Shown here piece after piece: positions 8,717 to 10,173 of a stretch of 64,000 bases of DNA. The first letter of the stretch is position 1; each line of letters starts with the position of its first letter. The notes below the pieces were generated by a model, which searched no databases, was not told where the DNA came from, and was given only the letters and a program-made list of their open reading frames with translations. Both the position numbers and the translations under genes were made by a program. Origin of the DNA: Spirochaetota bacterium (lineage in GTDB: Bacteria > Spirochaetota > Brachyspiria > Brachyspirales > JACRPF01). The stretch spans positions 3,051 to 67,050 of the forward strand of contig JACRPF010000012.1 of NCBI GenBank assembly GCA_016214035.1, written 5' to 3'.

Positions 8717-8752
8717 GAAGGACGGGCAGCAATGCCCGTCCTTCTTCATTTT
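8717..8752 (+). terminator. rho-independent terminator of the OMP gene
   Basis: Perfect 12-bp stem GAAGGACGGGCA / TGCCCGTCCTTC with loop GCAA, followed by TTCATTTT. Confidence 0.8.
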
Positions 8753-8763
8753 AAAGGGAATAC

Positions 8764-8811
8764 CGGTTTTATTGAAGGTGCGGATATATATCCGCGCCTT
8801 CAATAAAACCG
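8764..8811. repeat. REP-like 48-nt palindrome (copy 1)
   Basis: The arms CGGTTTTATTGAAGGTGCGGATAT | ATATCCGCGCCTTCAATAAAACCG are reverse complements with a single T/C mismatch. The core is GAAGG(T/C)GCGGATATATATC(C/T)GCGCCTTC. Confidence 0.8.
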
Positions 8812-8989
8812 TTGTCTGATATGACTATCGGTCGAAGATAATGGTTATATCGCAAGGCACGGCCTCGAGACCGCACCTGCAAATAGATACAACCACACGG
8901 GCGCAATTGTATAATCGCGCCTGCGTACAACGATGCCGTCATTTTTTCGGCAGTCTTCATTTTTTTCAACAACACGGTATGATAATAAC

Positions 8990-9532
8990 ATGCATCGCGA
9001 TTCACAAAAGCGGATATATCTGGAAAATGCCGTATATTTTATTACGACGGTAACGAAGGAACGGTATCCGTATTTTCATGAAAAGATAGTATGCGATCTT
9101 TTGGCCGAAGACATCCGCATGGCGTCGGAATTGAAGCAATGCGATGTTATCGCGTATAAGATCAATCCGGATCATGTGTATTTGATCATTCGGCCGTTGG
9201 GGAAACCGAATTACTCGGAATTCATGCATAACATGAAACGCGTATCATCATTGCATATAAATTATAGTATGGGTATGTTCGATTTTCCCGAAGGCGCGGA
9301 TATATATCTGCGCCTTCGGGAAAATCGACTTACATGGCAATCCCGGTATAACACCCGTATCGATATCCCGAAGTTCGCATGGCAGAAATCATATCGCGAT
9401 CATTTAGTTCGCGATGACGATGACCTCATACGTCATGTCGAATATATACGGAATCAATGGATAAAACATGATCTTCAGGAAAACGCTTATTGTTTCGTTT
9501 CCGAAGCGGCTATGCAATCGGTTTTAGAATGA
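8990..9532 (+). CDS. REP-associated tyrosine (Y1, IS200-like) transposase homologue (RAYT-like)
   Basis: Family-typical blocks RIYLENAVYFITTVTKERYPYF, AYKINPDHVYLIIRP (HUH region, here H-V-Y), FAWQKSYRDHLVRDDDDLIRHVEYIRNQ. Flanked by and containing REP-like palindromes. An alternative upstream start exists at 8933. Confidence 0.75.
   Translation: MHRDSQKRIYLENAVYFITTVTKERYPYFHEKIVCDLLAEDIRMASELKQCDVIAYKINPDHVYLIIRPLGKPNYSEFMHNMKRVSSLHINYSMGMFDFPEGADIYLRLRENRLTWQSRYNTRIDIPKFAWQKSYRDHLVRDDDDLIRHVEYIRNQWIKHDLQENAYCFVSEAAMQSVLE
9280..9327. repeat. REP-like 48-nt palindrome (copy 2), located inside the RAYT-like CDS
   Basis: The arms CGATTTTCCCGAAGGCGCGGATAT | ATATCTGCGCCTTCGGGAAAATCG carry one mismatch. 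The core is the same as in copy 1. The length is a multiple of 3, so the frame is preserved (encodes ..FDFPEGADIYLRLREN..). Confidence 0.8.
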
Positions 9533-9539
9533 ATGAGCC

Positions 9540-9561
9540 GGCGCGGTCACATATCCGCGCC
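9540..9561. repeat. degenerate REP-like half element just after the RAYT stop
   Basis: GGCGCGG-TCACATAT-CCGCGCC: a 7-bp stem that shares the ATATCCGCGCC half-site with copies 1 and 2. Confidence 0.4.
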
Positions 9562-9669
9562 TGCGTGCATTCCGTATCTGCTCCGCACCTGCTCCGTTTC
9601 ACCTTCGCTTCCGCTCCGGTCCCGATACACGCCTTAAATTCAATGTAACACATTTACGTATAGTATAGC

Positions 9670-10173
9670 ATGGAGTTTATTATGGCGCTTATATCACTTT
9701 CATTCCCCATTGCCCGGCTGCATGGCCGGCTGGGCACGGTTGTCTTCTGCGTGTGGAAAGGCGTGCGTTATGCGCGGAGGTATGTCCCGCATAACCGCAG
9801 CAACACACCGCTGCAGGCGCACCGGCGCATGTCGTTCAGACTGGCGGTATACGCATGGCGTATGCTTGACGGTACGGCAAAAGAGCGCTATGCGCAGCGG
9901 GCGATGCACCTCAACATGAGCGGTTACAACCTCTATATCAGCGAAACGCTGCGGGGCGGCAAAGAACATGAAGCATGCGGCATATCCCGCGGTTTCTATA
10001 CTGCAGATCGTCGTGATGGTGCATGCATACGCCCGTTGATGCCATCCATACAGCCGGTATATCGCCGATTGGGTATCACTGCCAATGCGGGCAGACTGCT
10101 GTACCATGCGCACAATGACCGGGAAGCGGTAAACTATCACCGTCATTGCGAGGGCTTTGTACGGAGCACGTGA
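9670..10173 (+). CDS. hypothetical protein (weak call)
   Basis: 167-aa ORF. The first ~100 aa look protein-like (GRLGTVVFCVWKGVRYARRYVP..NTPLQAHRRMSFRLAVYAW..SGYNLYISE). The tail is Arg/His-rich and runs into repeat-like DNA. No recognisable domain. Confidence 0.3.
   Translation: MEFIMALISLSFPIARLHGRLGTVVFCVWKGVRYARRYVPHNRSNTPLQAHRRMSFRLAVYAWRMLDGTAKERYAQRAMHLNMSGYNLYISETLRGGKEHEACGISRGFYTADRRDGACIRPLMPSIQPVYRRLGITANAGRLLYHAHNDREAVNYHRHCEGFVRST

Follow-up and report, generated by a model that had tools for sequence, protein, structure and literature searches.

The REP-associated tyrosine transposases (RAYTs) of E. coli, Stenotrophomonas and Marinomonas bind repetitive extragenic palindromes (REPs) as single-stranded hairpins and cut and rejoin them beside a GTAG-like foot; recognition draws on the foot and on stem and loop characteristics, REPs and the enzyme groups that act on them co-evolve, and REP spread and the matching of RAYT to REP are still an open question (PMC8266576). 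Here we describe a RAYT-like gene in a 64,000-nt stretch of a Spirochaetota genome (contig JACRPF010000012.1, positions 3,051 to 67,050; hereafter the window, in whose numbering all coordinates are given) that carries a REP-type palindrome in frame within its own open reading frame (ORF). The locus is very probably a REPtron-like unit, consisting of a gene for a RAYT-type HUH/Y1 single-strand DNA enzyme and copies of its cognate 28-nt perfect "double-foot" REP, one of which is read in frame as part of the variable surface loop that joins helix alphaC to strand beta4, and this arrangement appears, with high confidence, to be a hallmark of a clade and not an accident. The clade bearing the internal REP spans Patescibacteria, Spirochaetota, Cloacimonadota, Bacteroidota and other groups.

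Comparison with described systems

In-frame REPs are already on record in tnpA_REP genes of subclass 2.4 (equivalent to Bertels group 4), where Quentin, Siguier, Chandler and Fichant (2018; PMC6006769), working with complete genomes only, called in-gene REPs unique to that subclass. Subclass 2.4 proteins have a variable insertion between beta3 and alphaC and the motifs NH[IFV]H and YIxNNP, and their REPs include the "double-foot" type; the same study names alphaC:beta4 as one of the fold's two most length-variable regions, near the region of the E. coli RAYT that contacts its REP. That subclass and the family described here share several traits. In both, REPs flank the gene and also occur in frame within it, in the stretch that separates the HUH motif from the Tyr motif; the REPs are perfect "double-foot" palindromes, each end bearing a GTAG-like foot; and the W motif has WQ. 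The insertion, however, lies between beta3 and alphaC in subclass 2.4 and between alphaC and beta4 in every member checked here, and the motifs NH[IFV]H and YIxNNP are replaced by DHVY and YIRNQW in the window protein and mostly by DH[FVI]H in its family. A palindrome inside the gene, which a preliminary sequence-only reading of this DNA had singled out as the unusual point, is thus not new in principle.

The E. coli REPtron (RAYT group 2, structure 4ER8, with its REPs and bacterial interspersed mosaic elements) encodes the same HUH/Y1 type of enzyme, provides the best structural match to the window protein and also has cognate REPs bordering its gene. Its REPs, however, are imperfect and bulged, with a single 5' GTAG, strand-specific and present in hundreds of copies, whereas those described here are perfect, symmetrical palindromes, few of which are seen near the genes, with one in the ORF; protein identity to the E. 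coli enzyme is 17%.

Subclass 1.2 is IS200-related and of low copy number, with the motif YIKNQKEHH and a median length of 148 aa; it occurs in Cyanobacteria and Bacteroidetes and has neither REPs nor insertions (PMC6006769). The window clade resembles it in DH[VI]H, in WQ, in Y-I-x-N-Q-x-x-[K/H]-H (several relatives have exactly Y---Q--HH) and in its low copy number and divergent paralogues, and the window's own Tyr motif, YIRNQWIKH, with Q at +4, K at +7 and H at +8, is similar. The clade differs, however, in having flanking and internal REPs and mostly N, not Q, at Tyr+4. The IS200/IS605 TnpA transposases (IS608, ISDra2, IS200) share the fold, the bordering hairpins and, with the window protein, a Gln at Tyr+4 as third metal ligand, but the window protein falls below the IS200 family cut-off, and neither tnpB nor separate left and right ends are in evidence.

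Because the loop and motifs differ and REPs are present, the gene is assigned to neither subclass 2.4 nor subclass 1.2; we class it as RAYT-like. An in-frame REP in a RAYT gene is therefore already published for another subclass and another loop, and what is added here is a second site in a second lineage. Also new are the standing of the internal copy as the most conserved of the trio, its use of three reading phases, and "conserved or swapped" dynamics.

The locus and its protein

The unit comprises one gene and four palindromic elements:

8764–8811, no strand assigned: upstream palindrome, 48 nt, 23 of 24 positions paired; 28-nt "double-foot" REP core at 8774–8801
8897–8924, no strand assigned: decayed 28-nt REP of the GCAG-foot type, GGCGC-N12-GCGCC followed by TGCGTACA; −14.3 kcal/mol, z −2.7
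8990–9532, + strand: RAYT-like HUH/Y1 gene, 180 aa
9279–9328, no strand assigned: internal palindrome, in frame, 50 nt with 24 of 25 positions paired (48 nt at 9280–9327); core at 9290–9317
9537–9564, no strand assigned: decayed 28-nt REP, GGCGCGG-N8-CCGCGCC followed by TGCGTGCA; −18.6 kcal/mol, z −3.4

The two long palindromes had been noticed as 48-nt, near-perfect repeats with one mismatch each and a shared core, and this description holds, with the second extending by one nucleotide at either end to 9279–9328. The single mismatch in each is G/T on the + strand. Their common 28-nt core, GAAGGYGCGGATATATATCYGCGCCTTC, occurs in the window only at 8774–8801 and 9290–9317 (0.00 occurrences expected by chance), and in a scan of the whole window, which returned eight stems of at least 10 bp, these two stood out with 23 and 24 pairs, the next longest stem having 12 bp. 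Folded as RNA, 8764–8811 reaches −36.9 kcal/mol (z −10.3) and 9279–9328 reaches −42.2 kcal/mol (z −9.3). The second palindrome does lie in frame within the transposase-like ORF, as first reported; the ORF is intact, and the palindrome encodes residues 97–113, FDFPEGADIYLRLRENR.

The centre of the upstream palindrome lies 202 nt 5' of the ATG, beyond the usual flank position, which marks it as an extra copy. The usual positions are occupied by the decayed elements: the centre of 8897–8924 is 79 nt 5' of the ATG, the family's customary upstream site, and 9537–9564, a 7-bp stem with an 8-nt loop, begins 5 nt past the stop codon, the customary downstream site. The two share the pattern GGCGC-N12-GCGCC and the tail TGCGTRCA, recovered by a repeat finder. 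A degenerate half-copy had been placed at 9540–9561; the similarity is real, but it is better described as the decayed full element at 9537–9564, and its counterpart at 8897–8924 had not been recorded.

That the gene is RAYT-like is borne out by three lines of evidence. The protein matches Pfam Y1_Tnp (3e-12), and it scores 84.3 bits against the NCBIfam model REP_Tyr_transpos (NF047646), just over the cut-off of 80, and 37.6 bits against the IS200 model (NF033573), under the cut-off of 55. Furthermore, an AlphaFold (AF2) model built from 40 homologues (mean predicted local distance difference test score, pLDDT, 92.3) finds as its best PDB match 4ER8_A, the E. coli RAYT with its REP hairpin (E = 1e-7; template modelling scores 0.59/0.64; root-mean-square deviation 2.4 Å over 155 columns), with the ISDra2, IS200 and IS608 transposases ranking behind. 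In this predicted model helix alphaC spans residues 75–93 and strand beta4 residues 136–140, and the palindrome-encoded residues 97–113 fall between them. The ORF is open from 8933, which had been taken as the gene start, but homologues all begin M-(x)-HRNSQKRIY, so the ATG at 8990 is the supported start codon. A protein identical to the window's is on record from a "Spirochaetes bacterium" metagenome-assembled genome (MAG).

The protein's motifs are D-H-V-Y (HUH), EYIRNQWIKH (catalytic Tyr) and WQKSYRDH (W). The Tyr in place of the second His of the HUH motif (DHVY, codons at 9170–9181) is unique among 77 relatives; since 8 of the 77 carry H-x-N instead of H-x-H, the second His is not absolute. 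The remaining conserved residues are all kept, including Y152, Q156 and H160, and the ORF is full length.

The internal palindrome among relatives

The family is large, with 885 cluster representatives (50% identity) matching at E ≤ 1e-3 and 240 at E ≤ 1e-10. We surveyed 80 related loci from species-representative genomes, almost all of them MAGs, belonging to Patescibacteria, Spirochaetota, Cloacimonadota, Bacteroidota, Margulisiibacteriota and other groups. A near-perfect palindrome lies at +270 to +385 nt of the gene in 66 of the 80, and 77 of the 80 palindrome matches are free of in-frame stops. At the same position as in the window protein, homologues of 35–49% identity show the peptides CEGADIYPRL, HEGADSNPRL, LEGAIGQSRL and PEGAQTFARL, all of which back-translate to GAAGGCG...CGCCTTC palindromes. 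The element comes after helix alphaC and before beta4 in all members inspected, irrespective of motif type. The palindrome had been suspected of being a recent, lineage-specific event or a step towards pseudogenisation; homologues of 30–50% identity from many phyla, with an equivalent palindrome in open ORFs, speak against both.

The internal copies behave as conserved DNA. Sixty-three of them align without gaps on a fixed 28-nt core, G[A/T/C]AGGCG-N14-CGCCT[T/A/G]C, whose seven outer pairs are almost invariant and whose inner pairs are freely variable, lineage-specific and compensated. Paired cells make up 88% of this alignment, against 70.7% after shuffling and 35–45% when the partner column is slid; 15 of the 16 pairs show compensatory change on both sides, and the inner pairs are essentially without unpaired cells. 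Furthermore, all three reading phases are used (53, 10 and 3 loci); cores of the GGTCACGTGACC type, in which the commonest phase would, judged from the sequence, yield a TGA stop, occur in another phase. The use of three phases and the identity of non-coding to coding copies show that what is conserved is the DNA and not the peptide, and conservation at the peptide level is rejected on the same grounds. An assembly artefact is likewise rejected, the same architecture being found in more than 60 independent assemblies.

The proposal that the palindrome adds exactly 16 codons proved too simple. The conserved unit is 28 nt, not a multiple of three, and the segment absent from REP-less homologues is longer than this unit and of variable length. 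Diagnostic motifs also vary: the strict EGx....RL signature occurs in 46 of 189 full-length retrieved proteins; the residue at Tyr+4 is N in 54 and Q in 21 of the 77 relatives examined; and the family motifs are mostly DH[FVI]H and Y-x-x-x-[N/Q]-x-x-K-H, with YIxxNP in a minority. In a rough neighbour-joining tree, two clades, one rich in spirochaetes and one of Bacteroidota, account for most absences of the internal copy, and the inner stem changes between neighbouring tips, but the tree is too weakly resolved to be used for counting gains and losses.

Several relatives depart from the common plan. Two to four palindromes lie inside the ORF in L011 (6295–6498), L034, L042 and L079, so the internal site can expand, and peptides made of half-REPs in tandem, such as PEGAIRPPEGAIRPLEGAIGQSRL, occur in two proteins (P0044, P0021). 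The called N-termini of P0034 and P0053 consist of ANRAFGG three times over (alignment columns 1–40), which looks like read-through of an upstream repeat array with a GCGCCTTCGG foot. Three Bacteroidota loci from Saprospiraceae and Lewinellaceae (L040, L065, L074) are without the internal palindrome and have arrays of a different stem-loop repeat in the roughly 700 nt to either side of the gene, for example six copies of ATCCGTGGGTAAAAGAACCCACGGCT in L074. Two closely related loci in Spirochaetia MAGs from one study offer an example of internal decay: L008 has a 52-nt internal palindrome and L014 a remnant (EGDDPDRRL versus KGDDTL), and L014 keeps a perfect downstream copy despite the remnant inside.

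Internal versus flanking copies

In at least 25 loci the internal core recurs, identical or nearly so, just upstream of the gene or just 3' of its stop codon, the centres of these flank copies lying mostly 25–140 nt before the start or 17–90 nt past the stop. The original interpretation of the palindromes as REP-type elements that both flank the gene and sit inside it is supported. Genomes with two or three loci hold divergent paralogues and not identical IS-like copies, and paralogues in one genome carry differing matched sets (L010/L015 of the Peregrinibacteria genome CP064978; L007/L019/L023 of Kerfeldbacteria; L013/L028).

Persistence was compared in the 67 loci with enough flanking sequence, counting flank copies within 400 nt. 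The internal copy is present in 52 of these, an upstream copy in 22 and a downstream copy in 12, and the internal copy is the sole family palindrome within 400 nt in 30. Internal copies are also more often perfect palindromes (44 of 62, 71%) than flanking ones (23 of 49, 47%; p = 0.012). The sequence-only reading had held that an equivalent segment in homologues without nearby REPs would count against it; formally, the 30 loci are such homologues, yet the segment they carry is itself a REP, conserved as DNA.

Between close pairs of relatives the 28-nt cores differ at 0–1 positions, against a divergence of 24–50% at third codon positions in the rest of the gene; beyond the closest few, these pairs were picked for a shared inner stem, so the P values of this comparison are illustrative and not unbiased. 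Conversely, proteins that are about 80% identical over conserved regions can bear wholly different, compensated inner stems (L038/L050, L013/L028). Between relatives the core is either left nearly unchanged or swapped whole, a pattern more readily reconciled with a cassette-like site than with gradual drift. Stepwise co-evolution of the stem through point mutations is disfavored, as cores at about 80% protein identity are either near-identical or separated by at least four compensated differences.

Copies away from RAYT genes

Further copies are sparse near the genes. The far flanks of the relatives, 639 kb lying more than 1 kb from the genes, contain 14 convincing family palindromes. A metagenome scan for the window core returned 26 contigs representing about 16 distinct loci, so that the core does occur elsewhere, at some 16 non-RAYT metagenome loci; a core found nowhere else in the genome would have counted against the sequence-only reading. 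A single one of these copies lies within a RAYT-like ORF, whose product shares 40% identity with the window protein; on another contig a short RAYT fragment is all that is present, 7 kb away from the core copy; most of the others sit between the 3' ends of convergent ORFs. Such convergent 3' ends are the classical REP niche. The element is kept at an orthologous site between contigs that are just 78% identical.

Each dispersed copy (L081–L106) lies within a longer palindrome of 26–64 nt whose outer arms are locus-specific yet symmetrical, which suggests either insertion into the loops of pre-existing hairpins or outward extension by template switching. Two versions of one locus (L090 14234–14287 and L101 2617–2670; 96.5% identical, with 7 mismatches in 762 nt) differ in their outer arms by a mirrored, compensating pair of single-nucleotide polymorphisms, GCCCTGA/TCAGGGC versus GTCCTGA/TCAGGAC, with an estimated chance of about 1%; the pair may point to some active process by which the palindrome is kept symmetrical.

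A proposed role for the internal REP and its alternatives

The internal palindrome may be the substrate site of the encoded enzyme. It would be kept matched to the active REP variant, either because the enzyme itself exchanges it by cutting and rejoining or through gene conversion, which would explain why the internal core is unchanged or replaced whole between relatives, while selection for an open frame would decide which phase and which outer arms survive. The internal copy would further be retained for a role in cis, most likely as a brake on expression of its own gene, acting either through the −42 kcal/mol hairpin in the mRNA or through binding of the enzyme to a hairpin extruded during transcription or replication. 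A cis role is probable in so far as the internal copy outlasts the flanking copies and is better preserved. We put forward this mechanism, which draws on comparisons between loci, tentatively and with a little less than even confidence; the explanation as a whole we regard as evenly balanced between right and wrong. Two of the three options raised at the outset, self-insertion of the cognate REP and a built-in cis hairpin, stay viable; the third, a first step of pseudogenisation, is not supported.

Several observations weigh against this explanation. The internal copy is missing in eight loci that have flanking REPs, and short homologues (156–165 aa) lack the entire segment, so the copy is dispensable. 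Its longer persistence within genes could be mere protection from deletion, since imprecise deletions kill the ORF, and perfect palindromy could be upheld by mutational template switching instead of selection, as the mirrored L090/L101 pair hints. Internal copies show no excess of sense-strand G-T mismatches (5 G-T versus 8 A-C), and with the upstream copies counted as well (15 versus 9) there is no usable bias, and hence no specific pointer to a role at the RNA level. In the window itself, the core has no third copy within 64 kb, even with up to three mismatches allowed, so the REP is not dispersed here, and the H-V-Y motif, judged from the sequence, may leave this enzyme inactive or impaired.

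The main rival is a functionless but well-protected passenger. On this account, which we consider possible though on the unlikely side, the alphaC-beta4 loop is a permissive landing hot spot for REPs, and the copy persists because its imprecise loss breaks the ORF. Quentin et al. read the subclass 2.4 insertions in the same way, and they count alphaC:beta4 among the two regions of the fold that vary most in length (PMC6006769). The encoded peptide is unconstrained, with three phases and highly diverse sequences, and both the loci with two to four internal copies (L011, L034, L042, L079) and the eight with flanking REPs alone are as expected of a passenger. However, the internal copy is commoner than either flank (52 versus 22 and 12 of 67) and more often perfect (71% versus 47%, p = 0.012), and its core is unchanged though the surrounding synonymous sites diverge by 45–50%; a neutral copy should erode unless it were continually renewed.

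Decay specific to this copy, with the unit a dying remnant and the internal palindrome part of its pseudogenisation, is improbable. The DHVY motif found in none of the 77 relatives, the erosion of the REPs at both usual flank positions and the lack of other core copies in the 64 kb would agree with it. The ORF, however, is intact and full length with all other conserved residues in place, clearly intact genes of the family normally contain the internal palindrome, and the eight relatives with H-x-N indicate that the second His is not absolute. Taken together, the H-V-Y motif and the eroded REPs at the usual flank positions suggest that the unit in the window is partly decayed and past its prime; outright pseudogenisation, however, is hard to square with an intact ORF and an internal palindrome that is still near-perfect.

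An IS200-like insertion sequence, with the flanking hairpins as its left and right ends and the internal hairpin as a spare end, is very improbable. A gene of about 0.55 kb bordered by hairpins at IS200-like spacing, and a window-clade Tyr motif of Y-x-x-x-Q as in class 1 (IS200-type) proteins, would suit such an element. Against this, the protein passes the RAYT model and fails the IS200 model (37.6 bits for a cut-off of 55), copies within a genome are divergent paralogues with different hairpins, the hairpin occurs alone at gene ends without the gene, no tnpB gene is present, and the neighborhood consists of housekeeping genes (rpoN, hpf, ptsN, hprK); furthermore, near-identical multicopy whole elements of the IS200 kind were seen neither among the 80 loci nor in the window. 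Ordinary regulatory RNA hairpins or terminators, or a selected peptide, with only an incidental link to the enzyme, are scarcely credible: the hairpins are very stable as RNA and dispersed copies lie at convergent ORF 3' ends, some followed by T runs, but the long palindromes have no T tract, are not called as terminators and have no Rfam match, across at least 60 loci the inner stem changes in concert with the gene copy concerned, and a peptide would explain neither the identity of non-coding flank copies to the coding one nor the use of three phases.

A stronger form of the preferred explanation, that the internal REP is an obligate, selected part of an undescribed RAYT clade, serving as a master or anchor copy of the substrate within the ORF, exchanged as a cassette when the active variant changes, and as an autoregulatory site, strikes us as doubtful. 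If it were true, then, since the loop directly follows the DNA-binding helix, each cassette swap would rewrite four to five loop residues near the recognition surface and so couple the evolution of enzyme and substrate.

Implications

Each enzyme of the clade appears to have its cognate hairpin inscribed in the ORF that encodes it. Were this so, enzyme-substrate pairs could be read from sequence for hundreds of divergent members, and these pairs would form a natural collection in which to study the DNA-recognition code of the HUH enzymes, which also serve as covalent protein-DNA tags. Such an arrangement would also offer a direct route to testing REP exchange at fixed docking sites and a clean system in which a mobile-element enzyme regulates itself through its own substrate. 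Furthermore, the feature called unique to subclass 2.4 is now seen in a second lineage, where it arose or is maintained at a different site, which argues that it is more than an accident.

Neighboring features

The unit lies in a chromosomal housekeeping neighborhood that includes an outer-membrane-protein-like (OMP-like) gene, a GFO/IDH/MocA oxidoreductase, rpoN, hpf, ptsN, hprK and ptsH. Searches of the window for known RNA families (Rfam), tRNAs and tandem repeats found none, and intrinsic terminator calling, which passed over both long palindromes (neither has a T tract), made a single call:

8717–8744, + strand: terminator-like hairpin, GAAGGACGGGCAGCAATGCCCGTCCTTC then TTCATTTT, 3' of the upstream 552-aa OMP-like ORF; −24.8 kcal/mol, z −8.1

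This hairpin is exactly 28 nt long, and its ends, GAAGG...CCTTC, are those of the REP core. The resemblance may be coincidental, or the hairpin may be a diverged REP that functions as a terminator. Directly 3' of the downstream decayed REP is a 167-aa ORF (9670–10173) with no Pfam match, which corresponds to a 163-aa gene call in the Logan assembly.

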